Origin: Promethearchaeota archaeon
GTDB lineage: Archaea; Asgardarchaeota; Lokiarchaeia; Sigyniarchaeales; SOKP01
Length of the DNA stretch: 50,167 nt
Direction of reading: 5' to 3'
NCBI GenBank assembly: GCA_048940645.1
Contig: JBHLOI010000024.1
Coordinates: 1-50,167 of the forward strand
In this document: positions 857-38,445 of the stretch, one piece after another
Position numbering within the stretch: position 1 is the first letter of the stretch
How the letters are laid out: each line of letters opens with the position of its first letter
The notes under the pieces: generated by a model
What the model was told of the DNA's origin: nothing
Databases searched by the model: none
What the model saw: only the letters and a program-made list of their open reading frames with translations
Position numbers and translations under genes: made by a program

Positions 857-2383
857 TTAATCAACCTTCTTTCCACACAATTTACAATACTTCTGCTCCT
901 TTTTTAGTTTACTTCTACAATACTTACAATAGAGCTCAACTTCAGGTTCTTCTTCCTTAACAGATTTTTTCACTTGTAACTGAGTAGCAACTCCTAAGTC
1001 GCCTGGTGGTTTCGGAGGTTTGAAGATGTAAGGATATGGAAATCGATCTCCTTTATAACGTTTTCTATCTATATCTACTAATCGTGTGGGTATACCTGCC
1101 ATTAAACACGCTAAGATGTTAAAACAATCTTCTACTCCTGTCCCTTTTTTAGCTGATGTTTCTATATAATATAAATTGAATTTTCTAGTGAATTTATTTA
1201 TTTTTTCAATTGGAATTGCTCTTTGGTCTGTTAAATCGCTTTTATTTCCCACAAGTAAAATTGGAAGCTCTTTGTTAACGCGAGCCTTTAATTCTTCAAT
1301 CCATAATGGTAAATGCTCAAAACTTGAAGGATTAGTAAGATCAAAAACTAGAAATGCACCTAATAACCCGCCATAATACTTAGGTCTTAGAAAAGAAAAT
1401 CTTGCTCGGCAACCAGCGTCCCAAAGCTGTAATTTACATTTAATTTGACCCTTCGCAGTATTGATAGGTACAGTATTTACATGAAAATCTAAACCTATAG
1501 TCATTTTATAATCGTCTGTAAAGAACCCGTTTGAAAATTTATGGGCTAAAGCTGTCTTACCGACTTCACTATCTCCAAGCAAAAGACATTTAAAATTATT
1601 TGATAATTCAGGCTCAAATGTCATTTGTGCGATTTTTTCACAAATCCTTCTACAATCTAATAATATTAGCCCAAGTCGTTCATCTTTATCTGCTAAAACC
1701 ATTAATAAAGCATTGGGACCAGCTTGTAGAAATAAAAGATACCCATTGGAACCTTTTATATATAGTTGATCAAAGTCACCTCTTTTCATCTCAAAAACAG
1801 CTATTTCAGATAAGGAAAGAAGCGTAGGAGCTATAAGACCCATTATCATTTTATTAACATATTTCGGAATTATTGAAGTGATTGGCATCCCATTTTTTGA
1901 TATTACTACTGCAGTTTTCTTCATAGTAAAAGAAGGAAATAAAGAAGAAAATGGTGCAATATAGGGAAATGTTGTTGTAGGTTCATAGAATTCATTAGAT
2001 CCCAAACTTTCTGATGCAATTTTTTCACAAGTTCTTTTACAATCTAATAATATTTGCCCAAGTCGTACATCCTTATCTACAGATTTCATTAAAAATGCAT
2101 CACGCGCATCAATAACCAAAAGATAACCGTTAGAACCCCTGAGATATAGTTGATCAAAATCACCCTTTCCTGTCTCATTAATGGCTCGTTCAGATAAGGA
2201 GAGTAATGTAGCGGTCATCGCAGCGATCTTTTTTTCATCAATATCTTTTGGAAGACTTGAAGCAATAGGTAAACCAGTTTTATTCGCAATTAATGTGTTT
2301 TCAGTTAAGGAAATGACTCCAAAAGAATCTTCTCTTCTTTTTCTTTTAGCATCATCATAAGAATAAGGTTCCATAGAATTCAC
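857..2383 (-). CDS. Fusion: Roadblock-Roadblock-Rab-like GTPase-proline-rich motif-zinc ribbon
   Basis: Two repeats of GLPI..S...IAAMTATLLSLSE..GDFDQLY.KGSNGY (MglB/Roadblock); GDSEVGKT, TIGLDF, NKSD, ETSAK; tail FPYPYIFKPPKPPGDLG and CKYC..CKLC. Confidence 0.88.
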   Translation of the reverse strand: MNSMEPYSYDDAKRKRREDSFGVISLTENTLIANKTGLPIASSLPKDIDEKKIAAMTATLLSLSERAINETGKGDFDQLYLRGSNGYLLVIDARDAFLMKSVDKDVRLGQILLDCKRTCEKIASESLGSNEFYEPTTTFPYIAPFSSLFPSFTMKKTAVVISKNGMPITSIIPKYVNKMIMGLIAPTLLSLSEIAVFEMKRGDFDQLYIKGSNGYLLFLQAGPNALLMVLADKDERLGLILLDCRRICEKIAQMTFEPELSNNFKCLLLGDSEVGKTALAHKFSNGFFTDDYKMTIGLDFHVNTVPINTAKGQIKCKLQLWDAGCRARFSFLRPKYYGGLLGAFLVFDLTNPSSFEHLPLWIEELKARVNKELPILLVGNKSDLTDQRAIPIEKINKFTRKFNLYYIETSAKKGTGVEDCFNILACLMAGIPTRLVDIDRKRYKGDRFPYPYIFKPPKPPGDLGVATQLQVKKSVKEEEPEVELYCKYCRSKLKKEQKYCKLCGKKVD

Positions 2384-11798: not shown

Positions 11799-13301
11799 TT
11801 ATATTCTAACCTTAATGTCATGTTTTAAGAGAAATAATTTTAGTTCATTTATGAAAATTGTTTTTCTATGAAATAGAGAAGCAGCTAAAACAGCCTCAGC
11901 TCCATGCTTAATCGCTTGGTAAAAATGTTCATAATTCCCGGCACCCCCCGAGGCAATAATCGGAACTGAAATAAGTTTAGAAAGAGTATTAATTAATTTC
12001 AAGTCATACCCTGTCTGAGTTCCATCTTTATCCATGCTAGTGACTAACAATTCTCCTGCACCCCTTTCTACCACTTCTTTAGCCCATTGTAGCCCATCCA
12101 ATCCTGTGGATTCTGTTCCAGATTTGATATATACTTCCCAGCTCTTAGCTTTTTTCTTTACATCAATGGCAACAACAATTGATTGGCTTCCAAACTTCTG
12201 AGAAGCCTCGTTGACTATTTTGGGATGGTCCACTGCTGCAGTGTTTATGCTTACTTTTTCTGCTCCCGCTTTTATAATATTAGTAATATCTTTCAAATTT
12301 TTTATGCCTCCTCCTACAGTAAGAGGAATGTAGACTTCTTCAGCCACATTTCTTATAATCTGTATCATACTTTCTCGATTTTCTAATGTGGCTGAAATGT
12401 CTAGAAATACTAATTCATCCGCACCTTGAAAGTTGTAAAATTTAGCTAATTCCACTGGGTCCCCGCTATCTTGTAAATTATTGAACTTAACGCCTTTTAC
12501 TACTCTTCCATCTTTAACATCAAGGCACGGAATTATTCTTTTCGCTAAATTAGTTGGATCATATTTTATTATCAAATCTTTTAAATTTTCATGGCTTATT
12601 TTATTGTTATATAGCGCTTTCCCTACAACTACTCCATCTGTATAGTGTAAAACGGACTTAATATCATTGACTTTGCTTATACCACCAGATGCTATTATTT
12701 TAATGTCGGGATTTTTAATTTTTGAAAGTCTCTTGTATAACATAGTATTAGGTCCGTTTAATGTACCGTCACGTGAAATATCTGTTATTATAAAGTGAGA
12801 AACTCCCTTTTGTTCTAAATTCGTAAAATGAGACTCTAAATTAATTTGAGTGTTTTTAATCCATCCTTTTATTCGTAAATTATCATCAAATGCATCTATT
12901 GCAACAATTATATCATCCTTGTATTTTTTTATTAAATCTTCGAAAAGAGCTTGATTTTCAATGGCGAGAGTCCCAATAATGACTTTATAAACTCCTAAAT
13001 CTAACAGTTCCTTAATTATTCTTTCTGTTCTAATTCCTCCTCCTAGTTGAATTTTACAACCGTATTTACTACTCTCTTTAATTAGAGATAGTATTACATC
13101 ATAATTAGGCCCACTAAAAAAGTCTCCTGATTTTGCTCCATTTAAGTTTATGATATGTATTTGGTCGGCCCCATGATCTATAAATCGCTTCAGAAGTTCA
13201 ACAGGTTTATTAGAGTAAGTCTGTAATTGCTGAAAATCTCCTTTATATAACCTAACAGCATTACCATCATAAAGATCGATAGCTGGAATTATCTTTTTCA
13301 T
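11799..13301 (-). CDS. hisAF: Fused HisA (N-terminal) and HisF (C-terminal)
   Basis: [32 protein letters not shown] (HisA) then [38 protein letters not shown] (HisF) in one frame. Confidence 0.93.
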
Positions 13302-13308
13302 AGTATAA

Positions 13309-13902
13309 TTACCTCTTAATTAGAAAGATGAAATATTTAATCACATCATCACCTGTGTTTTTACTTTTTTCTGGATGAAATTGAGTTCCCATTATATGAT
13401 CTTTTAAGATTATAACGGGGATAGAGATTCCGTGGGTAACATAAGAAATGATTATGTTTTTTTCATTAGGATTACAATAGTACGAGTGGTTAAAGTAGGC
13501 ATAGCTATAAAAATAAGGTTCTGAAATTGGGATTAACCTATTCCATCCTGTATGGGGAATTCTAATAGATTCTTTTTGTTTTAATTTAATCACCTTACCT
13601 GGGATGATATCCAATCCATTTACGTCCATAGATTCTTCAGAATATGAAAAAAGTAGTTGCATACCTAAACAAATGCCCAGAGTTGGGACACGTCTTATGA
13701 TAGTTTTTAATGGGTTGAATAAATCGTATTGTTTGAGTTCTTTGACAGCATCCCCAAATGCCCCCACCCCTGGAAGAATTAATCCTTCTGCTTTCTCTAT
13801 TATAGCTAAGTCTCTTGAAATAATCACTTCTGGATAAAATCTTTCAAAGCTTTTTTGTATTGATCGAAGATTTCCACTGCCATAATCTATTATTACGATC
13901 AT
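13309..13902 (-). CDS. hisH: Imidazole glycerol phosphate synthase, glutaminase subunit
   Basis: IDYGSGNL, LPGVGAFG, GICLGMQ, QFHPEKS. Confidence 0.95.
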   Translation of the reverse strand: MIVIIDYGSGNLRSIQKSFERFYPEVIISRDLAIIEKAEGLILPGVGAFGDAVKELKQYDLFNPLKTIIRRVPTLGICLGMQLLFSYSEESMDVNGLDIIPGKVIKLKQKESIRIPHTGWNRLIPISEPYFYSYAYFNHSYYCNPNEKNIIISYVTHGISIPVIILKDHIMGTQFHPEKSKNTGDDVIKYFIFLIKR

Positions 13903-13913
13903 CCAAATCCCCC

Positions 13914-14525
13914 CTATAGCATTCCTTTACTTGATGGAACTCTCTGATTTCGTTTTGAATCGATTCTTGACGCATAATCTAAAGCTTTTCCAAGAGCCTT
14001 AAATATTGCTTCTGCGATGTGATGGTTATTTTGACCATATAAAACTCTAACGTGGAGCGTTATTTGGGCATTAATTGAAAAGGTATATAAAAAGTGTGTT
14101 ATCAAGTCAACTGGTATCAAACTATCCTCCTTTGAACCTAAAAATGGGTTTACCCACTTTATTTCTTTCACGAAATATGGTCTTGATGAAATATCTACAG
14201 AAACAAACGCTAGGCTCTCATCCATGGGGAAAAAGCAATGTCCAACTCGAGCTATTCCAGATTTGCTTCCCAGGGCTTTATTGAAAGCTTTACCTAAAAC
14301 AATAGCTGTATCTTCAATAATGTGATGATTATCAATATTCAAATCACCCTCAGCAAATACATTCATATCAAAGGAACCATGAATTGCAATCTGGGTAAGA
14401 AGATGATCAAAAAAGCCTATGGATGTATTGATCTCAGAATCACCAGTTCCATCGATATTCAATTTGATTTTAACTTCCGTTTCCTTAGTTTTTCTAGCTA
14501 ACTCAGTTTTTCTTTCCGTTTTAAT
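13914..14525 (-). CDS. hisB: Imidazoleglycerol-phosphate dehydratase (start extended upstream of the track ORF)
   Basis: IDNHHIIED, PMDES, NNHHIAEAIFK, PSSKG; conserved RKTKETEV lies in frame upstream of 14462; start is ATT (14525) or ACG (14519). Confidence 0.92.
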   Translation of the reverse strand: MKTERKTELARKTKETEVKIKLNIDGTGDSEINTSIGFFDHLLTQIAIHGSFDMNVFAEGDLNIDNHHIIEDTAIVLGKAFNKALGSKSGIARVGHCFFPMDESLAFVSVDISSRPYFVKEIKWVNPFLGSKEDSLIPVDLITHFLYTFSINAQITLHVRVLYGQNNHHIAEAIFKALGKALDYASRIDSKRNQRVPSSKGML

Positions 14526-15669
14526 TCACCTCAAAATATAATTTTATTATTTCTATTACTTTTTTCATGTGCACACCTGTACCTATGGATATTCTTAGGC
14601 AATTTGGAAGGCCCGCCTCGAAGTTACGCACTTTAATTTGATTATTAAGAAAATATTGATAAAGAGATTTTGCTATTTCTGCCGATTGAAATCTTAACAA
14701 AATAAAGTTTGCCTCACTTGGATGAAAATAAAAAGCTTTACTTTTTCCTCTTAATTTAAGTAAATCCTTATAAAATTCTTCTCGAATTGACTTAATTTTG
14801 TTAATATTTGCCAAAACCTCCTCTTGCGTGTTTAACAATAAAGAACCGTAGAATAATGCTAGATTATTAACACTATACGGACCTTTTACACGAGTCACTA
14901 TCTTTTTTATGGAAGGGTTAGTTATTATATAGCCTAACCTTAAGCCCGCGAGAGAATGGGATTTACTAAATGACCGTAATATTATCAAATTATTGTAGCT
15001 TTTTGTTAAATCTTTTAAACTTGACTCATTGCTGAAATCTATATAAGCTTCATCAATAATTACCAACTTTTTAAGCTCTAATATTTTTTTAATAAAGTCA
15101 AGAGGTAATAGCATTCCGTCTGGGTTATTTGGCCTCGCTAAAATAATAATCTTTGAAGATTTAGCCATTTGCATAAACTTTTGCTGATCTAAATCATATT
15201 GTGCGATACCCATTACTTCATTAAGCTGTAGTTTTAGGGGTACTGATAAATATTTAGCACCGTTTATTTTCGCATAAAATTTATACATTGAAAAGCTTGG
15301 GCTCACACTTAATACTGCATTTCTTGATGAAGAAAAAATCCTAATGATAAGATCCAACAATTCATCAGAGCCAGAACCCGCAACTAGAAATGAAATAGGA
15401 ACGTTAATTTTCTCAGATAATAGTTTTAAGAAGGTATTAGCGCTTGGATCAGGATAATTTTTAACGAAACTTAACAGATTTAAAGATGCAAGATCTCCTA
15501 AGGGAGGTGTAAACGGATTTTCATTTTTATCTAAATATATTATATTATTTTGAATATGCTCATAATAGGATGGTGGAGTTAAATATTCCGAAGCTAAAAA
15601 CCTCTGAATGATTCTAGATGGTTTGATAGTGTGTGATTCTTTATTCAATTTTATCCCCTTCCTCCTCAA
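14521..15669 (-). CDS. hisC: Histidinol-phosphate aminotransferase
   Basis: LDKNENPF, GSGSDE, PNNPDG, DEAY, RSFSKSHSLAGLRLG; true start possibly TTG near 15648. Confidence 0.92.
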   Translation of the reverse strand: MRRKGIKLNKESHTIKPSRIIQRFLASEYLTPPSYYEHIQNNIIYLDKNENPFTPPLGDLASLNLLSFVKNYPDPSANTFLKLLSEKINVPISFLVAGSGSDELLDLIIRIFSSSRNAVLSVSPSFSMYKFYAKINGAKYLSVPLKLQLNEVMGIAQYDLDQQKFMQMAKSSKIIILARPNNPDGMLLPLDFIKKILELKKLVIIDEAYIDFSNESSLKDLTKSYNNLIILRSFSKSHSLAGLRLGYIITNPSIKKIVTRVKGPYSVNNLALFYGSLLLNTQEEVLANINKIKSIREEFYKDLLKLRGKSKAFYFHPSEANFILLRFQSAEIAKSLYQYFLNNQIKVRNFEAGLPNCLRISIGTGVHMKKVIEIIKLYFEVN

Positions 15670-16981
15670 TTCTGTTATAATATCCTCTTAAACTAGCTGC
15701 CTTTGCATGTCCTGTTAACTTTTCGGATTCTGCCATTTTTTCAGCGTATTTAGACAAGTTTAGTGCAACCTCTTTATTTAAGTATACCAAATTGATTCTC
15801 TTAACAAAATCGGAAACTGATAAAGCGGAGGAAAAACGAGCAGTTCCATTAGTGGGCATTACATGACTGGGACCAGCAATATAGTCACCTAATACTTCAA
15901 AGGAATTTTCTCCAATAAAAATGCCTCCAGCATTTTCTATTTGATTTAAAGCTGTCATAGGGTCTTTAACCATAAGCGATAGATGTTCAGGCGCAAACTC
16001 ATTTGAAATTTGAATTGATTCTTCTAATGAACTTGTTAAAATGATACCACCTTTGTTCTGAATAGAGTTCTCAATGATTTCATTTCTTTCCAGGTCCCTA
16101 ATTTGCCTTTTTAACTCATTTTTGATGTATGAAATTAAATTTCGATTGGAAGTAACTAATATGGGAATTGCTAAAGGATCATGTTCTGCTTGAGCCAGTA
16201 GATCGGAAGTAATAAGTGAAGGATTTGCTGTTTCATCAGCGATGATTATGACTTCAGTTGGCCCATATATTCCATCAATTCCTACGATTCCATATACTTC
16301 TTTTTTAGCTAAATTTACATAAATATTTCCGGGACCTACAATTTTATCTACTTTAGGAACCTGATCAGTTCCGAATGCCATGGCAGCAATAGCTTGAGCA
16401 CCTCCCATTTTAAATAGACGAATATTTACACCAAATTTTTTAATCAATCCACAAGTTGCTAGAATAATATTAGGCAAAGCTCCGTTTTTTTCTGGGGGAG
16501 AAGCAAAGATGATGTCTTTAGTTCCTGCTACGACAGCGGGTATGGCTGTCATTAATATTGAGGAAAACAAAGGAGTTTTACCTCCTGGAATATAAATTCC
16601 TATCTTTTTAATTGGTTTTATTATTTGACCTAATTGTCCTCCAAGATTGTAATTCATCCATGTTAGGATTGGTTGCGACTTGTGAAATTTATAGATTCTC
16701 TCGCTCGCTATTTCCAAAGCTACTTTTAACTCCGGATTAATAGTCGAGAGACATTCTTCAAAATCAATATCAACTATTTCAAATTGGTCTATATTCACTT
16801 TATCTAACTTTAAAGTCCAATCTTTGAGTGCTTGATCACCCCTTTCCTGGATATCTTTAACAATTTTTCTTACAATTTCCTCTGGGCTAATACTATTACT
16901 ACTGAATTCTGGATTTGAGAGGATAACTTCTCTTTTTAAAATTGTATTTCTTGCCTCATCCGGTGTGTATACTCTAATCAC
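15641..16981 (-). CDS. hisD: Histidinol dehydrogenase
   Basis: GGAQAIAAMAFG, KIVGPGN, GPTE, QAEHD, APEHL, GDYIAGPSHVMPT. Confidence 0.96.
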   Translation of the reverse strand: MIRVYTPDEARNTILKREVILSNPEFSSNSISPEEIVRKIVKDIQERGDQALKDWTLKLDKVNIDQFEIVDIDFEECLSTINPELKVALEIASERIYKFHKSQPILTWMNYNLGGQLGQIIKPIKKIGIYIPGGKTPLFSSILMTAIPAVVAGTKDIIFASPPEKNGALPNIILATCGLIKKFGVNIRLFKMGGAQAIAAMAFGTDQVPKVDKIVGPGNIYVNLAKKEVYGIVGIDGIYGPTEVIIIADETANPSLITSDLLAQAEHDPLAIPILVTSNRNLISYIKNELKRQIRDLERNEIIENSIQNKGGIILTSSLEESIQISNEFAPEHLSLMVKDPMTALNQIENAGGIFIGENSFEVLGDYIAGPSHVMPTNGTARFSSALSVSDFVKRINLVYLNKEVALNLSKYAEKMAESEKLTGHAKAASLRGYYNRIEEEGDKIE

Positions 16982-17993
16982 TATCCATCCCCAAATTCTT
17001 TAATAATTTTATATATCTCAATGGTTCTTCTTCAAAAATATAAAGTGCTGGAGCAACAACTACACCACTGCCACCAATTTCTCGGAGATTTCTTATCGCT
17101 TGTTGTAAATTTTTTCTTTCGACAATAACGTGAACTGCAAACATATTTTCTCTATTTTTGGTAAATACAGCAGATATTGTAGGTCCTTGTAGTCCTTCAA
17201 GCCCTTCTTTAGAGAAAATTGCCTTAGCAATTTCTTCACGACTTTCTCCTCTCATGTTTACGAATACTGATACAAATTTTTGGGCTCTTAAGGTTGCTTC
17301 GATATATTCAATCAATCCCCGAGCAGTTTTTAAAATAGTCTCATTCTTCAGTGATCTGCGATTACCTATAAGTACAGATTCAGAAGTCATTATTTGACCT
17401 CCATTTATCCTTTTTAAACGATTATCCTTTAATGTCTGGCCCGTTGACACAAGATCAACTATAATATCACTATACCCCAACTCTGGATATACCTCAAGAG
17501 AACCATTTCCCTCAATTAATTCATAAGTTATGTCAACTGAATTTAGGAACTGCTTAGTAAGCTTTGGAAATTTTGTAGCAACACGAATTAGCTTTTTATT
17601 CTGTTTAATCTCATCAATTGAATTTTCAGGCCATTCTTCAGGAATGGCTATTTCAAGGCTGCACTTTCCAAAATTTAGCGCATCATGTATAACTATTAAC
17701 TCATTATCATATTTGGGTAAATATTCACGAACTAAATCGTAGCCAACTATTCCCATTTCTAATGATCCATTTAATACCCCCCTAACAATATCTACTTGAC
17801 GTTGATAAACTAGTTGGAGATTAATGGGCCCCTCTATTGTTCCAATATATTGTCTGTTGTTTCTTTGTATATTAAATCCACAGGATCTTAAGAACTCCTG
17901 AGTTTCACTTTCCATTCTTCCCTTTGAAGGGATAGCTAGTCTTACCTTTCTTGATTTATACTTTGGAGATGATATTTGTAGCTCTTTTCTCAT
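16974..17993 (-). CDS. hisG: ATP phosphoribosyltransferase, long form
   Basis: LAIPSKGR, ATKFP, DIIVDLVSTGQTL..NRL; C-terminal regulatory domain GLQGPTIS...GGSGVVV. Confidence 0.95.
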   Translation of the reverse strand: MRKELQISSPKYKSRKVRLAIPSKGRMESETQEFLRSCGFNIQRNNRQYIGTIEGPINLQLVYQRQVDIVRGVLNGSLEMGIVGYDLVREYLPKYDNELIVIHDALNFGKCSLEIAIPEEWPENSIDEIKQNKKLIRVATKFPKLTKQFLNSVDITYELIEGNGSLEVYPELGYSDIIVDLVSTGQTLKDNRLKRINGGQIMTSESVLIGNRRSLKNETILKTARGLIEYIEATLRAQKFVSVFVNMRGESREEIAKAIFSKEGLEGLQGPTISAVFTKNRENMFAVHVIVERKNLQQAIRNLREIGGSGVVVAPALYIFEEEPLRYIKLLKNLGMDSD

Positions 17994-18898
17994 TTATTTC
18001 GCCTCCATAATTCATTTATAATTTCATCTGGCTGTATTTTATTTTTAGCCATTAAAACAAGGATAAAATATGTTAAGTCAGCAATTTCCCAGATTAAGTT
18101 ATCTCTATTAGTATAATTTATCAATTCCAGACTCTCTTCTTGAATTTTCGATAATAAATATTCATTATCTTCAGCGAGTCTTTTAGTATAGGATTCTCTT
18201 ATTCCATAGTTTTCAATGCGATCATTGATTAAATCATAAAGATACTTTATTGAAAATTTCACATTTCGAAAACAAGAATAAGATCCCGTATGACATGCAA
18301 CACCTATTTGCTTTACTCTAAATAACAATGAATCGGTATCACAATCATAAAAAATTCTTTTCACGATTTGAATATTGCCTGATTCTTCCCCTTTTATCCA
18401 AAGACAATTTCGCGATCTACTGAAGTAGGTCGCTCTTTTGGTCATAATAGTATGCTTTATCGATTCTTTTGATGAATATGCAAGCATTAAAACAATATTA
18501 TTTTGGTCTTGTACCACTGTTGGAATTAGTCCATTCGATTTTTCAAAATTTAAAATCGGTAACAATCGATTGTCTATGAATGAATAATCCATCTTTAGGT
18601 CGAAGTTTATTATCTCATTTTCATTATAAGATTCAAGTTCAAAACTATTTATCCCGTGCATTTTTAGTAGCGATTTTAGCTCTTTTTGGTTGGGCTCTAA
18701 ACTAATCCCTAATTCAATTTTTTTAGAAGCATCCTTGAGGGTTCCATCTTTTATCAGTGCTACAATACTGTTATTATTAGCCTTAAGAATAAGAGTAACA
18801 TATAAATCCCAACCTCGTTTTATAAATACTCCATCTATGAACTCCCTTAACCCTCCAATCTTTTCAAGTTCCTTCATATCTATTTTCAATATTAACAT
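17990..18898 (-). CDS. hisIE: Bifunctional PR-AMP cyclohydrolase/PR-ATP pyrophosphatase with N-terminal extension
   Basis: GLIPTVVQD, SRSR..LW.KGEESG, DCDTD, ACHTG..SCF (HisI); SYT..L, EIADL (HisE). Confidence 0.92.
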   Translation of the reverse strand: MLILKIDMKELEKIGGLREFIDGVFIKRGWDLYVTLILKANNNSIVALIKDGTLKDASKKIELGISLEPNQKELKSLLKMHGINSFELESYNENEIINFDLKMDYSFIDNRLLPILNFEKSNGLIPTVVQDQNNIVLMLAYSSKESIKHTIMTKRATYFSRSRNCLWIKGEESGNIQIVKRIFYDCDTDSLLFRVKQIGVACHTGSYSCFRNVKFSIKYLYDLINDRIENYGIRESYTKRLAEDNEYLLSKIQEESLELINYTNRDNLIWEIADLTYFILVLMAKNKIQPDEIINELWRRNK

Positions 18899-18904
18899 AT
18901 TATA

Positions 18905-18984
18905 CCCCCCAAACTGAAATAGTTCAGTTTGTTTAAATTCCGATGAACAATCAATAACAAATATTATTTTAGTTCGTCGGAATT
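18905..18984 (-). promoter_or_regulatory. Two RNA hairpins between the leader stop and the hisIE RBS
   Basis: 13-bp stem with 1 mismatch (18936-18948 / 18972-18984); 9-bp perfect stem with 4-nt loop (18910-18931) that includes the first G of the GGGGGG RBS (18905-18910). Confidence 0.65.
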
Positions 18985-18985
18985 A

Positions 18986-19147
18986 TTAATGATGTAGCCA
19001 ATGATGTACCACTGAATTAAAATATTTAAGAAAATTAACTGGTACATCTTGCGATCTAATAACAAGACAATTATTAGACTCTTCCATAAATGAGATACTC
19101 AATATAGTATAAATTAAGTTAAGATGATTATTTTCATAAAAAATCAA
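18986..19147 (-). CDS. Putative histidine-rich leader peptide of the his operon (53 aa from TTG 19147, or 33 aa from ATG 19087)
   Basis: Translates ...MEESNNCLVIRSQDVPVNFLKYFNSVVHHWLHH*; GGGTGA RBS at 19154-19159; stop codon about 90 nt upstream of hisIE. Confidence 0.65.
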   Translation of the reverse strand: MIFYENNHLNLIYTILSISFMEESNNCLVIRSQDVPVNFLKYFNSVVHHWLHH

Positions 19148-19301
19148 ACAAATTCACCCATATTGAGTTCTTTTTATTATAGCTAGTTTTACTAGCATAT
19201 TTTCAATTTATAACATATTCTATTATATGAGGACTAAAAAAGTTTTCTATAATAATCCTATTCGAATCTGAAAAATAAAAAAAAAAGTGAATTTAGATTA
19301 T

Positions 19302-19817
19302 TCATACTTCGTAAGGAAGCACCCAAAAATAACTAGTCCAAGTCCAGACAATTTGCTCACGATTAATCGTCCCTTGGTAGAAACTGATCTCGTGGTCCAT
19401 TCTATGCTCTCCAACTTCTAAAGAATATGGCTCGTAAATATGATAAAAAACTGTCCAATATACAGGTATACCATCACCAAATACCTCACCATTTTTATCG
19501 TACCACCCAAATTTACTAAATTCAACTTCAACCTCTTCATCTAAAAGGACAGACCAAGAATACGGACGTGACCATAAATGTTGCTGTTGTTCTTCTTTTG
19601 TGGCTCCGCTCGCAAAAATCATATAATTGGTGTCACCAACAAATACCTCAGCATTAGTATGTATTCTTTGTTCACCAGTGATGAGGGAGTTAATTATTAT
19701 TCGACGTCGTTGAGGATATCCCCCATTAGGATTAGCTTGAACAGAGATTATAGGAATTGATAATGTTATCGCGAGTAAGATGGCCAAAAGACTTATATTA
19801 ACTGTTCTTCTTTGCAT
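19302..19817 (-). CDS. Hypothetical secreted protein
   Basis: Signal-peptide-like N-terminus (QRR + hydrophobic + VQA); beta-rich aromatic body. Confidence 0.7.
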   Translation of the reverse strand: MQRRTVNISLLAILLAITLSIPIISVQANPNGGYPQRRRIIINSLITGEQRIHTNAEVFVGDTNYMIFASGATKEEQQQHLWSRPYSWSVLLDEEVEVEFSKFGWYDKNGEVFGDGIPVYWTVFYHIYEPYSLEVGEHRMDHEISFYQGTINREQIVWTWTSYFWVLPYEV

Positions 19818-19851
19818 TTTTATTTACCTCAATTTTTTTAAAAGATTTCTA

Positions 19852-19873
19852 GATCAATCAAATTTGATTGATC
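19852..19873. promoter_or_regulatory. Perfect 22-bp palindrome (candidate operator)
   Basis: GATCAATCAAATTTGATTGATC, about 35 bp upstream of 19302..19817. Confidence 0.6.
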
Positions 19874-19919
19874 AAAAAATAGGTATTTCTTTCGCAAATA
19901 AAAAGATTACTTCGAAAAT

Positions 19920-19990
19920 ATCTAGTAAAGTTGGAAGAAGTAGTAGTAAAAAATATATTTTAGTGGTAAAATTTACGAATTACTAGTAAA
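19920..19990. repeat. Four phased direct repeats T(A/G)GTAAA at 20-21 bp spacing
   Basis: Cores at 19923, 19944, 19964 and 19984. Confidence 0.55.
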
Positions 19991-20217
19991 ATTAAAATAG
20001 CTAATTTTTTTAACTCCAATTGATTCATTAGAAGTGCTGGTTAGTTCTTAACAATTTTAGGAATATGAACCATTAATTTCTTCTTATCGTACAATATTGT
20101 TAATATTTTTCGAAAAAAAGCAAATATATATAAACAAATTTAACAATTTAGAATAATACCTATGCTTATTTTTCCCATCAAGGTATTAAGTTATTATATT
20201 AGGAGGGAGATGAGTTT

Positions 20218-22581
20218 TTGACTTCATTAAATGTCAAATTAGAGAATTTTGAAGAAGAATGTATAAAAAGTATTGATTCAATATTCGATGCTTATTTTTT
20301 ACTCTCTAAAAAGAATATAATATTGGATTGTGGGATTAAAGATAGATTGCTTAATTCATATTTCGGATGGAAAAGTCTTCAAGGAAAAGATCTCATCAAG
20401 TTCTTCGAGACTCAAATTCAACAAGAGAGTAATAAAAGATTACTTCAAAAAATTTCAGAAAAAAAGCCTCAAATATTTGAAGTTAGTATAAAGGTAAATT
20501 ATCAAACTGGTTATTACAATGTATTTATTTTTATTTTAGCTAATGATCAAATGCTCATTAATTTTCAGAACATAGACAAACAGAAGAAAATTGAATTTGA
20601 ATTGGCTGAAGAGAGAAATACATTAAAAAATATAATCGAACTAAACCCTTATGCTATTGAAATAAAGGATGCTGAAGGTCGACACGTTAGTGCTAATAAA
20701 GCCTTCATTGATATGTTTAAATCTGTGGCTCCACCTGAATACTCTATCTTTACAGATCCTCATCTTAAAAAGAGAGGACTACTGGATAAAATTCTAAAAC
20801 TAAAGGATGGTGAGGTTGTAAAGATGGGAGAACATTGGTATGATGTTCGTGACTCTGCAAGAGAAGCTGGTCTTAATTTAGAGGATTATCCGAGCTCACC
20901 AATATGCCATAAAGCTGTTGCTTTTCCAATATTCGATAGAGAGGGCAAAATAAAGAATTACGTTATGATGCATGAAGACATTACTGCATATAAAAAAGCT
21001 GAGCAAAAGTTACGTGAGAGTGAAGAAAGATTTCGCTCTCTGGTTGAAACTACTAGTGATTGGATATGGGAAGTGGATGTGAACTCTGTTTTTACTTATG
21101 TAAGTCCAAAAGTTAGAGAATTATTAGGGTATGACCCAAAAGAAATCATTGGCAAAACTCCTTTTGATTTAATGCCTTTAGAGGAAGCAGAACGTGTGCA
21201 AAAAGTTTTTAAAACCATACTTGATTCCGATAAATCTTTTAAAATATTTGATAATACGAATCTCCATAAGGATGGAAGTTTAAAGATTCTTGAAACGAGT
21301 GGAGTACCAATTTTTGATGAAGATGGTAAACTTATAGGCTATCGTGGCATCAATCGTGACATTACTAAGCGCAAAAAGGCAGAAAAGAAATTAAAAGAGT
21401 CTGAAGAAATGTATCGGAATTTATTTAATAGTACACCCTATGCAATTTGGCTTGTAGATTTACAAGGAAAAATTATTGATTGTAATGAACCAATGGATAA
21501 ATTCATGTCAATATTTAAATACACCGATTTAATAGGAAAATCTTTCAGAGATGTACTTAAAATGTTTGCACGTGAAGGAGATCCCAGATTTGAAAATTTA
21601 GAAAAACGTTTGAAAGATAGATTTAAGATATTATTAAAAAAAGGCTATATCAAACCAATCGAATTTGAAATTTTTAGGGGTGATGGTAAAACATTTTGGA
21701 TAACTTTAGAATCTTCCTTTGTCAATATAGGCAAAAAAAGACTTATTCAAACATTTATTAAGGATATTACAGAGAAAAAGTTAGCTGAAATTGAATTAGA
21801 GGATTTAAGGAAAGAGTTAGAAACTAGAGTAAAAGAGAGAACAATTAAGCTGGAAAATTCGGAAAAAAAGTATCGGAAGGCATATAACAGGGCAAATTGT
21901 TATAAAGGACTGTTTACTCACGATATATCTAATATGTTTCACACTATTGGAAATTCTATAGAATTATGTGATACATTATTGAAAGAGGGAGTGAAAAATA
22001 GCGATATGATTGAATATTTTGATGTAATTGAACAACAAATTAATCGGGGGAAAAAGTTAATAAATAATATTAGAAATTTATCAGAAATTGAAGAATCCGA
22101 AATGCCCTTAGTGCCTACAGAGGTTTTTAATAAGTTGAAAAACGCTATCCAATTTGTTAAGGTAAATTTCCAGAAACGAGATATTAATTTCAATATTGTA
22201 TCTGATTTAGATGAGATTTACGTACTTTCTAATGATTTATTACTTGATGTCTTTGAAAATATTCTTATTAACTCTGTACTTTACAATAAAAATGAATCTA
22301 TAAAGATTGAAATTAATATTTCAAGATTGAAAGAAAATGAGAAATCATATATTAAATTAGAATTTAAAGACAATGGTATTGGTATAAATGATAATAGAAA
22401 AAGACTCATATTCATGGAGAATTACAAGAAAAGAACAGGATCTAAAGGTATGGGGCTTGGACTTTCTCTTGTCGCTAAACTTTTAGACCTTTGTCAAGGA
22501 AAAATCTGGGTTGAGGATAGAGTTAAAGGAGATTATACTCAAGGAAGTAATTTTGTTATTTTAATACCAGAAGCAGAATAA
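20218..22581 (+). CDS. Multi-PAS sensor histidine kinase
   Basis: At least 3 PAS/PAC repeats (DIT.RK.AE..L.ESE), H-box FTHDISN, N-box ENILINS, DNGIGI, GMGLGL. Confidence 0.93.
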   Translation: MTSLNVKLENFEEECIKSIDSIFDAYFLLSKKNIILDCGIKDRLLNSYFGWKSLQGKDLIKFFETQIQQESNKRLLQKISEKKPQIFEVSIKVNYQTGYYNVFIFILANDQMLINFQNIDKQKKIEFELAEERNTLKNIIELNPYAIEIKDAEGRHVSANKAFIDMFKSVAPPEYSIFTDPHLKKRGLLDKILKLKDGEVVKMGEHWYDVRDSAREAGLNLEDYPSSPICHKAVAFPIFDREGKIKNYVMMHEDITAYKKAEQKLRESEERFRSLVETTSDWIWEVDVNSVFTYVSPKVRELLGYDPKEIIGKTPFDLMPLEEAERVQKVFKTILDSDKSFKIFDNTNLHKDGSLKILETSGVPIFDEDGKLIGYRGINRDITKRKKAEKKLKESEEMYRNLFNSTPYAIWLVDLQGKIIDCNEPMDKFMSIFKYTDLIGKSFRDVLKMFAREGDPRFENLEKRLKDRFKILLKKGYIKPIEFEIFRGDGKTFWITLESSFVNIGKKRLIQTFIKDITEKKLAEIELEDLRKELETRVKERTIKLENSEKKYRKAYNRANCYKGLFTHDISNMFHTIGNSIELCDTLLKEGVKNSDMIEYFDVIEQQINRGKKLINNIRNLSEIEESEMPLVPTEVFNKLKNAIQFVKVNFQKRDINFNIVSDLDEIYVLSNDLLLDVFENILINSVLYNKNESIKIEINISRLKENEKSYIKLEFKDNGIGINDNRKRLIFMENYKKRTGSKGMGLGLSLVAKLLDLCQGKIWVEDRVKGDYTQGSNFVILIPEAE

Positions 22582-35073: not shown

Positions 35074-38000
35074 TTGAGAATTTTAGTATTAAGCCACCGG
35101 AATCTGTTTTTTCCTCCATATATATTTTTAAAAGTTCCTGAAACAATTGAAAGGGATGATCTTAAACAGGTTCCCACTTTAATAGAGCTTTATGAAGATG
35201 GTTTTTTTAAACATATGTTTGGAACTTTTAAAACAGCTAATTTGTTGTTTGATATTCCGAGTAAGTATTCAAGAACGAAAAAGGAGCGCCTTTTAATTTC
35301 AATAATAGTTGATAATAAAAACAAAATTAACACTACTTTAGCACAAGAACTTTTAGAAGGATTTGTTGAAGAATTTAAAAAAATTAAAAAAGCCTATAAG
35401 GCTTTTTATGTGGACTCTCAATTTTATCAAGGAGATATAGGTAAGCTACAGGAAATTAGAACACTATTAGAAACATTTAATACATCTTTTCCAGAAGAAA
35501 GAGTCATATTTGAACAAAAAGAGGCAAAAGTGCTAATTTTTGGACTTTCGATGGCGGGGAAAACAACTATTATTAAGACAAGAAGAAAATCTGTATTAAA
35601 AACAATATTTCCAACCATAAATGTAGATATTTCTAGAATCTTAGTTAATAATGTATCTCTATTAACTTATGATACACCTGGACAAGTAAAATTTAAGGAA
35701 ATATGGAAACCATATCTGAAAAAACAAGACGGTTTGATTTTTGTTTTAGATGTTTCGGATAAGTTAAAATTCCCAGATGCACGTGCATTATTACATGAAA
35801 TAGTAGGAATGCCGGAGCTAAGTGAATTACCACTTCTTATTCTTTTCAATAAGATTGATTTAGAAGAACCGAATATAAATGATCTAGAAGACGATATGGG
35901 ATTAGAAAAGCTTGGAAAAATGCCAATGAAATCTTTTTTAACAAGTGGAATTAATAATATAAATATTGATGAAGCATTTAATTGGCTTTCACTTAAAATA
36001 GCCGAGAGAATTGAAACATATACCCCAAGAACAGATATTGGGATAATATTTTGTCGATGGGACGAAAATCTTGGCGTTAAAATCGAAGCAGTTCATCCTA
36101 AAGATGCTTTCGAGAATCCAGAATTGATTTCTATAAAAAGTTTTTCAATTTCGCAATATATTTTTGGAGGAGGAGAATTTAAACGTGCCTCAGTAATTTT
36201 ACCATTTCCTCATTTAAATTCAAATGCTGCAATTTATTTTGATTATGTATCTGATGAGAGTATTAGAGGGGGTTTATTACCATTATCACTAATAATTTAT
36301 TACAATGATAAGATTCCTAAGAGTATAGTTAACCAATTTAGTTATTTCATTCTTAAACAATTTGATAACATAAAAAATAATTACTTGAATAATATTCAAG
36401 TATTAGAAATTCTAAGAGAGATTCATAGTACAATAACAAATCAAATTGATTTATATAAACCATCAATTGAAGCCCTTAAAATTGCTGAATTACGTTATGA
36501 AGCTTTATTTAAGGCTGCTCGAGATGCGATTTTGATTATTGATAAAAAATCAGGAATTATAATGGATGCTAATGAACAAGCAGAGGAGTTATTTCAACTC
36601 CCTTTTGAAGATTTTATCGGATTCCATTCAAGTCAATTATTAAATGAAATTATAAATATCGATTTTAATGAAGAAATATTTGATCAGCTTAATAGTTCCT
36701 TTCCTTTAAGATTAGATGTCATTGATAATTCAGGTAATCTTATTCCAGTTGAAATTAATGTAAATGACGTACAAATGGGAGGACAGGTCTTTACTCAATA
36801 TATTATTCGAGATGTCAGTAAGAGATTAGAGGCAGAAATTAAATTAAAGAATTCTGAAATAAAATATCGTCATCTTTTTAAAGATTCACCATTTTCTATT
36901 CTTTTAATTAATCCTAATGGTTCTATAGTTGATTGTAATCCTGCATTAGAAAAGTCTTTAGGATATACAAGAGAAGAATTATTGGGGAGGCAGTTTGTGG
37001 ATCTTTCATTAATTCATCAAGATTATTTAGTAGAGGTTCTTAAGAGATTTAGAAAAGAAGAAAGGGGCAGAATTTTTCCATCATTAGAAATTCAACTTTA
37101 CCAGAAAAATGGGAATCTCATTTGGGTGAATATGCTATCTTCTTTTGTTGAAATTGGTGATGAAACTTTTTATCAAATAATTTGTCATGATGTAACAGAG
37201 CAAAAAAAAACAGAACTGGATTTAAAGAAAATTTCAAAATTAGAAGGCATTATTGCGAGAACTATTTCGAGATTTATAGGTATAAAAGATTTTAATCAAG
37301 CAATTTATGATTCTCTTAGAGAGATTGGGGAATTAGTTAATGCTAATCGAGCTTCTATTTACATTTTTAATAATAGTTATAATTTTATGAAGAGAAATTA
37401 TATTTGGTATGGTAAATTAACTTATCCACAAATTGATTTGCCTCAATTTATATCAATTAACAATTTTCCATGGGTAATTGAGAAATTAAAAACATCTGAT
37501 TATTTTTGCATTAATGATGTTGCTATGCTTCCTAAACAAGCAATAAACTTTAAATATTTTCTTGAAATGCAAAAAGTTGAAAATATTTTAGTATTTGCAA
37601 TAAAAATTAATGATTTATTAGAAGGAATCATATGTTTTGATAATCTATCGGAAAAAGATTATTGGAAAGAAGAAAATCTTGAAACGTTAGGAATTTTCTC
37701 AGATATACTAAAAAATGCGATATTGCGTAAATTAGCTGAAAACAACTTACGCATAAGCGAAGAATCTTTCCATGAAGAATTTGATAGAGAATACTTCTAT
37801 AAAGAACTATTCATAAATGATATAAATAATATAATAAATAGCCTTCAATCATCATTAGACAAATATATCAAGCAAAACAGTCAATTTATATCAAAATCTT
37901 TAAGAGAATTATTAGATAATGTAAAAAGCGAATGTATTAACGCCCAACTTTTAATATATACAATACAAAAATTAACAGTACTTAATGAAACAAAAATTGC

Positions 38001-38445
38001 AATTGTAAAAGTAGATTTAAATAATGTAATTAATGACGTTATAGATTTTATAACTAGTACATACACCAACAAAAAAATTAATATAATTGTTGAAAATCCC
38101 AGTAAGGAGTTATACGTGAAGGCTGATAAGTTTCTAATAGATGTTTTAGTTAATATACTCATTAGTTCGATAAGATATAGTAAAAAACCCTCAATTGAAT
38201 TGAAGATTATTATCTATAGAAGTAAAGAGAATAATTTAAATTATGTTAAAATAAAATTCATCGATTATAAAAAAGAAATCTTAAATATAGAGAAAGATAT
38301 GATTTTCAAAAAGGAGAGAGAAAAAGATAGTAAAATTAAAGAAATAATTTTAGGATTTCTTCTAGTTGAACGAATCTTAAATAATTATAAAGGAAAAATA
38401 TGGGTAGAAGGAAATAATTTTGTTATCTTAATACCTGAAGCTTAG
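35074..38445 (+). CDS. Fusion: uDENN/longin-like, Arf-like GTPase, uDENN/longin-like, PAS, PAS, GAF, degenerate histidine kinase
   Basis: GLSMAGKT, FPTI, DTPGQ, NKID; FCRWDENLGVKIEAVHP; two PAS/PAC; GAF (NANRASIYIF...GIICFD...W); LFINDINN where an H-box is expected. Confidence 0.85.
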   Translation: MRILVLSHRNLFFPPYIFLKVPETIERDDLKQVPTLIELYEDGFFKHMFGTFKTANLLFDIPSKYSRTKKERLLISIIVDNKNKINTTLAQELLEGFVEEFKKIKKAYKAFYVDSQFYQGDIGKLQEIRTLLETFNTSFPEERVIFEQKEAKVLIFGLSMAGKTTIIKTRRKSVLKTIFPTINVDISRILVNNVSLLTYDTPGQVKFKEIWKPYLKKQDGLIFVLDVSDKLKFPDARALLHEIVGMPELSELPLLILFNKIDLEEPNINDLEDDMGLEKLGKMPMKSFLTSGINNINIDEAFNWLSLKIAERIETYTPRTDIGIIFCRWDENLGVKIEAVHPKDAFENPELISIKSFSISQYIFGGGEFKRASVILPFPHLNSNAAIYFDYVSDESIRGGLLPLSLIIYYNDKIPKSIVNQFSYFILKQFDNIKNNYLNNIQVLEILREIHSTITNQIDLYKPSIEALKIAELRYEALFKAARDAILIIDKKSGIIMDANEQAEELFQLPFEDFIGFHSSQLLNEIINIDFNEEIFDQLNSSFPLRLDVIDNSGNLIPVEINVNDVQMGGQVFTQYIIRDVSKRLEAEIKLKNSEIKYRHLFKDSPFSILLINPNGSIVDCNPALEKSLGYTREELLGRQFVDLSLIHQDYLVEVLKRFRKEERGRIFPSLEIQLYQKNGNLIWVNMLSSFVEIGDETFYQIICHDVTEQKKTELDLKKISKLEGIIARTISRFIGIKDFNQAIYDSLREIGELVNANRASIYIFNNSYNFMKRNYIWYGKLTYPQIDLPQFISINNFPWVIEKLKTSDYFCINDVAMLPKQAINFKYFLEMQKVENILVFAIKINDLLEGIICFDNLSEKDYWKEENLETLGIFSDILKNAILRKLAENNLRISEESFHEEFDREYFYKELFINDINNIINSLQSSLDKYIKQNSQFISKSLRELLDNVKSECINAQLLIYTIQKLTVLNETKIAIVKVDLNNVINDVIDFITSTYTNKKINIIVENPSKELYVKADKFLIDVLVNILISSIRYSKKPSIELKIIIYRSKENNLNYVKIKFIDYKKEILNIEKDMIFKKEREKDSKIKEIILGFLLVERILNNYKGKIWVEGNNFVILIPEA

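Follow-up and report, generated by a model that had tools for sequence, protein, structure and literature searches.

The histidine biosynthesis operon of this Promethearchaeota archaeon is preceded by an unannotated small reading frame with histidine codons clustered at its end, which lies among conserved RNA hairpins, and we suggest that this leader is probably a stalling-based His sensor, read by the ribosome in cis, that raises his expression when His is short. The window, by which we mean the whole 50,167-nucleotide stretch that was analysed, is AT-rich (about 30% G+C), and the leader and the operon are both encoded on its minus strand. The operon that would be regulated (11799..18898) consists of hisIE, hisG, hisD, hisC, hisB, hisH, and a hisA-hisF fusion, with strong Pfam matches for all seven. 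Its first gene, hisIE (17990-18898), matches the Pfam families PRA-CH and PRA-PH as well as NCBIfam NF002747, and its last, the hisA-hisF fusion (11799-13301), encodes one 500-aa protein with two Pfam His_biosynth stretches; the first four genes, hisIE, hisG, hisD, and hisC, overlap stop to start. The closest relatives of the HisIE protein, at no more than 90% identity, are found in metagenome-assembled genomes (MAGs) labelled Promethearchaeota or Promethearchaeia, in which the contigs concerned reach 1 Mb; this is the phylum that constitutes the Asgard group in the NCBI taxonomy.

The leader reading frame (uORF, 18986..19147) has 53 codons plus a stop. It begins with a TTG (19147-19145), with a Shine-Dalgarno sequence (SD), GGGTGA (19154-19159), 6 nt 5′ of this start, and it closes with Val-Val-His-His-Trp-Leu-His-His-stop, so that His makes up four of the last six codons. 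The His cluster itself, CAT CAT TGG CTA CAT CAT (18989..19006), is the proposed stall site. A second in-frame TAA (18983-18985) follows the stop codon (18988-18986), which is separated by 87 nt from the hisIE ATG (18898-18896), and the hisIE SD, GGGGGG (18905..18910), lies 6 nt before that ATG. The first-pass annotation of this DNA had already pointed to the frame with its TTG and GGGTGA, and to a His-rich end about 90 nt before hisIE, and all of this is present as described; where it had hesitated between TTG 19147 and ATG 19087 as the start codon, the TTG is to be preferred, since it aligns with the ATG of relatives, and the ATG at 19087 was set aside.

A scan of this genome covered 2302 upstream regions with 4014 small ORFs, of which the uORF is the most enriched in His codons (p ~2e-6), and the operon that it precedes is the only his operon that the genome has. 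The pattern is not due to chance. The leader RNA is also predicted to fold far more stably than shuffled versions of itself (−64.2 kcal/mol versus −44.8 ± 4.1 for 200 shuffles; z = −4.7). Searches of the uORF peptide gave no Pfam family match, and no tRNA gene was found in the window; a repeat or mobile element was ruled out, as the spacer of 403 nt before hisIE occurs only once in the genome.

Upstream of the leader and on the same strand lies a 171-aa ORF that belongs to no family (19302-19817), and a T10-A-T5 tract (19271..19286, minus strand) can be read in the sequence 3′ of its stop. Oligo-T tracts work as archaeal terminators, and this tract likely ends the upstream unit, so the leader should have a promoter of its own. 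A conserved box, AACTTTTTTAG (19234..19244, minus strand), is located approximately 85–95 nt before the uORF start and recurs at the same distance, either exactly or with 1–3 changes, at 15/15 loci with enough upstream sequence. This box could be the BRE/TATA of the leader promoter or else the site of a regulator, which would add a second control layer. A TATA-like element had been proposed at 19206-19213, with a transcription start near 19180, and it is the box at 19234-19244 that turned out to be the conserved upstream element instead. The genome contains 30 copies of the box, 8 of them intergenic and some 59–64 nt before genes; a general promoter motif was rejected because the box is rare in the genome.

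Relatives of the leader were sought with the HisIE protein, with the leader DNA, by protein alignment against all GTDB species, and with a covariance model of the three helices nearest hisIE (P3-P5, described below). A leader followed by a hisIE-first his operon was identified in 16 species, including that of the window, which belong to two genera of one Promethearchaeia (Asgard) family, and the leader is restricted to these two genera; as the 16 species are related, counts across them overstate their independence. The covariance model matched 15/151 genomes of the order, at these loci only, and 0/20 genomes from other families. No His leader was found within 1.5 kb upstream of hisIE at 64 other loci from other Asgard archaea, DPANN, methanogens, and bacteria, where hisIE is often not the first gene, which makes such loci uninformative. 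Four loci from the same genus (L015-L018, in genomes G001, G002, G014, and G011) likewise have no His leader; their hisIE, of about 400 aa, has a different N-terminal part, and the 450 nt upstream of it look coding.

The frame is open in all 16 species, with a length of 36–62 codons, and it has been kept open despite the AT-richness of the DNA, in which about 8% of random codons are stops; all indels within it are multiples of three. Every locus carries 4–8 His codons within the last 6–11 codons, most commonly as two His pairs with two codons between them, and one member has eight His codons in a row. The six bases of the first His pair are invariant in 14/14 species of a 14-sequence alignment, in which the second pair is 86–100% conserved, and the His cluster is the best-conserved coding feature of the leader. 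Elsewhere the picture is different for the peptide, which diverges freely between species outside the helices and the His cluster. Codon third positions outside the helices (0.72 conserved) are as conserved as first and second positions (0.65 and 0.71, respectively), and the alignment therefore indicates that selection preserves the open frame together with its His codons and the helices and is not maintaining a peptide. The first-pass annotation had advised checking whether other genomes share His-rich uORFs and stems that covary, and both were found in the 16 species. The frame relation of the uORF to hisIE varies by species, on which ground frameshifting or read-through into hisIE was rejected.

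Five helices are shared by the aligned leaders: RNAalifold returned a consensus with P1, P2, P4, and P5, and P3 was added by hand from columns aligned in register. P1 (19097..19168) is a perfect 9-bp helix with arms at 19160-19168 and 19097-19105, and the SD and start codon of the uORF lie in its loop. P2 (19054..19079) lies within the leader frame. P3 (19003..19048) is also a perfect 9-bp helix (repeats 19003-19011 / 19040-19048), extendable to 16 nt at 88%, and its 3′ arm covers the first His pair. P4 (18936..18984) is a long imperfect hairpin whose 13-nt arms (18936-18948 / 18972-18984) are 92% complementary, and P5 (18910..18931), with arms at 18910-18918 / 18923-18931, is again a perfect 9-bp helix, the last G of which is the first G of the hisIE SD. 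Three inverted repeats had been reported at the outset (19003-19011/19040-19048, 18936-18984, and 18910-18931), and all are present, as P3, P4, and P5, respectively.

The comparison among species supports all five helices as RNA structures. The fraction of cells that are paired is 93% in P1 (three pairs with double changes), 90.5% in P2 (four such pairs), 81% in P3 (five, in alignment A2), 97% in P4 (five, with many G-U pairs), and 97% in P5, where a G-C to A-U double change is found in three species, and each helix thus shows compensatory changes, with at least one double change. In P3, for example, A-U is replaced by G-C in step with the base after the His pair; P3 is missing in one species, which has a 42-nt in-frame deletion. 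Over P1-P5 together, 91.6% of cells are standard-paired, compared with 25–46% when the partners are slid by 1–3 columns, and 18 pairs show double changes, compared with 6–7 in the slid controls, which retain the relatedness of the species and still fail; 0/500 shuffles reached the observed pairing or double-change values. The frequent G-U pairs on the mRNA strand further argue for RNA helices and not DNA palindromes.

The position of P4 relative to the end of the frame recurs among the relatives. Its 5′ arm starts 1 nt past the stop in the window, and in most relatives it starts within the stop codon itself; all members of the common layout have this codon in or beside the first P4 base pairs, and the last His codon is 4 nt from P4 in most species. 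Both P4 and P5 are conserved in sequence beyond the needs of pairing, and a G-rich run is present at the hisIE SD in all species. Within the frame, a T5–T8 run in the P3 loop, 10–25 nt before the first His codon, is seen in 7/16 leaders (L037, L011, L031, L030, L041, L014, and L076), the window having only a T4. At such runs the polymerase might pause and give the ribosome time to close the gap, though the runs are too poorly conserved to carry much weight.

Further searches of the same genome identified two sister leaders, both outside the window. The strongest Trp enrichment among the 4014 small ORFs belongs to a frame of 17 codons, four of them Trp (contig C117:33886-33939, minus strand; L059:4887-4940), located 148 nt before trpB2, a gene for a TrpB-like PLP enzyme (NF009057), and Trp-rich frames are found at the same place at 19/30 family loci. 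Most of these Trp leaders have a U-rich tract after the frame, plus a second hairpin module that is also conserved; no usable consensus structure was obtained with RNAalifold for the Trp leaders, which align poorly. The other is a 29-codon frame with five Leu at its end (contig C126:51366-51455, plus strand; L185:167-256), which lies 140 nt before leuS (NF008957) and is kept at 8/8 family loci found. This Leu leader is unrelated, and here too the stop codon is in the base of a conserved hairpin, the loop of which has an invariant U5. Because a TATA-like tract is located about 25 nt before the ATG, the Leu-run frame may be leaderless. No LeuA-type leu operon was found in this genome, and nine other enriched small ORFs were dropped as cognate leaders because the genes after them are unrelated. 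That a single genome pairs His, Trp, and Leu frames with their cognate genes is difficult to account for unless ribosomes sense the matching charged tRNA.

To compare ribosome positions, the RNA was folded with ribosome-masked nucleotides in two ways, once over the full leader and once over the region from P3 to the hisIE start with ensemble averaging (14–15 orthologs). The mean pair probability of P4 in 15 orthologs was 0.87 in the free RNA, 0.89 when the ribosome occupied the invariant His codon, and 0.02 when it was at the stop, while that of P5 was 0.78, 0.76, and 0.79, respectively. Ensemble folding of the 15 orthologs found no conserved alternative helix that replaces P4, and P4 is, in these predictions, the sole conserved structural difference between a His-parked ribosome and one at the stop codon. 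Approximately 50 nt of AU-rich RNA are exposed only with P4 open. The P4 loops are only moderately U-rich, with a U fraction of 0.33–0.56 and a longest U run of 2–7, and they are partly self-paired; the loop was rejected as a clear factor site for being no more U-rich than this.

These features suggest a model for how the leader would work. Transcription would begin upstream of the small frame, as the box at 19234-19244 and the upstream oligo-T terminator imply, and the frame would be translated, to judge from its conserved SD and start and its being open in 16 species. When charged tRNA-His is scarce, the ribosome would, by analogy with bacterial leaders, park where the His codons are clustered, at the end of the frame; it would then halt just short of P4, which would stay closed, whereas a ribosome that reached the stop would have to unzip P4, whose base contains or adjoins the stop codon. 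Under His shortage, closed P4 together with P5 would take up nearly all of the RNA from the leader stop to the hisIE SD, and the operon would be expressed. With His plentiful, the open P4 would expose the approximately 50 nt of AU/U-rich single strand behind the terminating ribosome as a potential substrate for FttA/aCPSF1-type cleavage and termination, or for another single-strand nuclease, and operon expression would go down. The sign of this P4 model is the one to be desired, with His shortage turning the operon on.

FttA, the archaeal termination nuclease, requires single-stranded U-rich RNA that trails the polymerase by about 23–36 nt, and it is regarded as a competitor of a coupled ribosome (PMC11616081). 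Besides the modest U content of the P4 loops, two points count against the proposed read-out: P4 would re-form once the ribosome leaves the stop, possibly making the vulnerable window short, and by the FttA spacing rule the 3′ arm of P4 may still be inside the polymerase at the time when FttA could act. Protection by P4 from factor-dependent termination or cleavage is our favoured guess for the read-out, offered as a tentative one that is somewhat more apt to be wrong than right, and what is left over among read-outs would fall to mRNA stability or to something unforeseen.

The main competing read-out is translational attenuation of the ermC/cat kind, in which a His-parked ribosome would remodel P4 and P5 and so free the hisIE ribosome-binding site, or in which P5 would be a regulated standby or stacking element. 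This was the output preferred in the first-pass annotation, as RBS access or re-initiation, and the geometry speaks for it, with P5 ending exactly at the SD, P4 starting at the stop, and the last His codon 4 nt from P4 in most species; furthermore, control of hisIE initiation could spread by coupling through the stop-start overlaps of hisIE, hisG, hisD, and hisC. A recurrent 5-bp complementarity between the 3′ end of P4 and the loop plus 3′ arm of P5 can also be counted in its favour. Against it, the hisIE SD and AUG are outside all helices of the RNAalifold consensus, and the SD is mostly unpaired in every predicted state. The ribosome-masked folding that had been recommended as a check, run in both versions on 14–15 orthologs, showed no consistent shift in SD or AUG pairing among free, His-stalled, and stop-codon states, nearest-neighbour folding being weak evidence on this point. 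P5 stays at 0.76–0.79 in all states and no conserved alternative helix is seen, and a relay in which the freed 3′ arm of P4 pairs with P5 was rejected on the constancy of P5. Re-initiation after the leader stop would also have the wrong sign, as it would give more enzyme when His is plentiful. We consider translational attenuation unlikely as the output of the leader.

Classical transcription attenuation of the trp/his type, with mutually exclusive antiterminator and terminator hairpins and intrinsic termination at a U-tract, shares an identical sensor half with the P4 model, and some U-rich elements do occur: one species has a U7 run in the P4 loop, another has two U4 runs, the sister Leu leader has its invariant U5 in the equivalent loop, and U-rich tracts follow most Trp leaders. 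Yet no T run of at least 5 occurs between the stop and hisIE in the window, as had been noted at first for the stretch after the last hairpin, and none in that interval is conserved across the 16 leaders, 4 of which are without any such run anywhere; a promoter/terminator scan of the window found no minus-strand terminator. Nor was a conserved alternative pairing found, and an Rfam cmscan of 17500-20500 at E up to 10 returned four chance matches only, with no His_leader (RF00514), T-box, or riboswitch among them. Intrinsic termination in archaea moreover requires no hairpin. Altogether, the classical scheme appears very improbable here.

Equally remote is a functional His-tailed micropeptide, for instance a metal-binding helper for the zinc enzyme HisI, with the hairpins being those of an ordinary structured UTR. 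In its favour, the frame is conserved with an SD of its own, His-rich tails are metal binders, and HisI is a metalloenzyme, but the third positions are as conserved as the first and second, the peptide diverges outside the helices and the His cluster, its length ranges over 36–62 codons, and it matches no Pfam family; metal binding also fails to explain the Trp and Leu frames before trpB2 and leuS. Finally, the sequence conservation of P4 and P5 beyond pairing needs, together with the conserved upstream box, which suggests that a DNA-binding factor also acts, could be taken to mean that the frame is incidental to a protein-, tRNA-, or metabolite-binding RNA (of a riboswitch- or T-box-like kind) or to DNA operators formed by the repeats, and we give this little credence, since Rfam showed no match to T-boxes or known riboswitches, the many G-U pairs of the mRNA strand favour RNA helices over DNA palindromes, and 16 species would not have kept an incidental frame open with its His codons invariant.

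In bacteria, leader-peptide attenuation is a textbook form of gene control; it depends on the coupling of translation to transcription and on termination at hairpins. The archaeal polymerase is eukaryote-like, and its termination requires no hairpin. The sensor half of the His leader resembles hisL-type leaders. Like enterobacterial hisL (RF00514), trpL, leuL, and pheL, it is a short upstream frame that ends in codons for the end-product amino acid, and as in hisL-type leaders the frame lies within conserved hairpins directly before the biosynthetic operon, the relative with eight consecutive His codons being an especially close parallel. It differs from hisL in having no RF00514 match, in a frame that is three times longer (36–62 versus 16 codons), in the placement of the His codons in the 3′ arm of a hairpin, in the lack of a GC-rich terminator hairpin with a U-tract and of a conserved antiterminator/terminator alternative, and in an archaeal host with a polymerase that terminates differently.

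By analogy, the logic of the His leader would be nearer to that of tnaC-tnaA of E. coli, in which Rho is kept from its loading site by a ribosome that has stalled at the leader end. In both, the outcome would be set by whether the ribosome is parked or released at the end of the leader, an untranslated spacer precedes the first gene, and termination would be factor-dependent and not intrinsic, which for the His leader is a proposal. tnaC responds to free tryptophan, whose target is the nascent peptide at the stop, whereas a shortage of charged tRNA at His codons is the trigger proposed here, and the factor is Rho there, whereas FttA/aCPSF1 with P4 as a protecting hairpin is proposed here. The ermC/cat leaders are alike in that the ribosome stalls in a leader frame that runs up to a hairpin, with the downstream gene's own SD near a helix; they differ in that their SD is sequestered and freed by stalling, whereas the hisIE SD is unpaired in all predicted states, and in that their trigger is an antibiotic. 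For the Leu-run leader before leuS the nearest parallel is pheM-pheST, which is also a leader before an aminoacyl-tRNA synthetase operon, albeit bacterial, with an intrinsic terminator, and for another amino acid.

A full-text literature search, of incomplete coverage, found no published report of an archaeal amino-acid-sensing leader peptide. If the proposal is correct, the His leader would bring ribosome-based amino-acid sensing to archaea, and specifically to the Asgard archaea, the closest prokaryotic relatives of eukaryotes, and would imply a functional coupling of the ribosome with the polymerase, or with RNA fate, in these organisms. It would also provide a compact, mutable element for testing how archaeal termination or RNA decay reads the position of the ribosome. 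More speculatively, and with slightly more doubt than attaches to P4 protection at the his locus, the His, Trp, and Leu leaders may represent an Asgard family of ribosome-read cognate-codon leaders in which a hairpin with the stop codon in its base, formed only when a ribosome is parked upstream, shields the nascent RNA from FttA/aCPSF1. Such a family would be an archaeal invention, an anti-terminator hairpin in a system without a terminator hairpin. The small frames themselves are unannotated and were missed by the genome annotation of these MAGs.

The HisIE protein of the leader-bearing loci has features of its own. An N-terminal extension of about 115 residues (18545-18898, minus strand) is predicted with confidence to adopt an alternating beta-alpha fold (pLDDT 80–88). 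Searches with Pfam and Foldseek did not reveal its identity, the PDB matches being to the HisIE part only. The extension is common to all leader-bearing loci, and three relatives (384–398 aa) have a further insertion. The HisIE of L037, from a genome assigned to the other genus (G078), is 90% identical to that of the window, and the leaders of the two are nearly identical, whereas the HisIE proteins of the window's own genus are only 50–62% identical to it; this similarity suggests either that the operon was transferred recently or that one of the MAGs is assigned to the wrong genus. Elsewhere in the window, large proteins with small-GTPase domains are encoded at 857-2383 (minus strand) and 35074-38445 (plus strand), the latter also with PAS and histidine-kinase parts, and multidomain small-GTPase proteins of this sort are typical of Asgard genomes.
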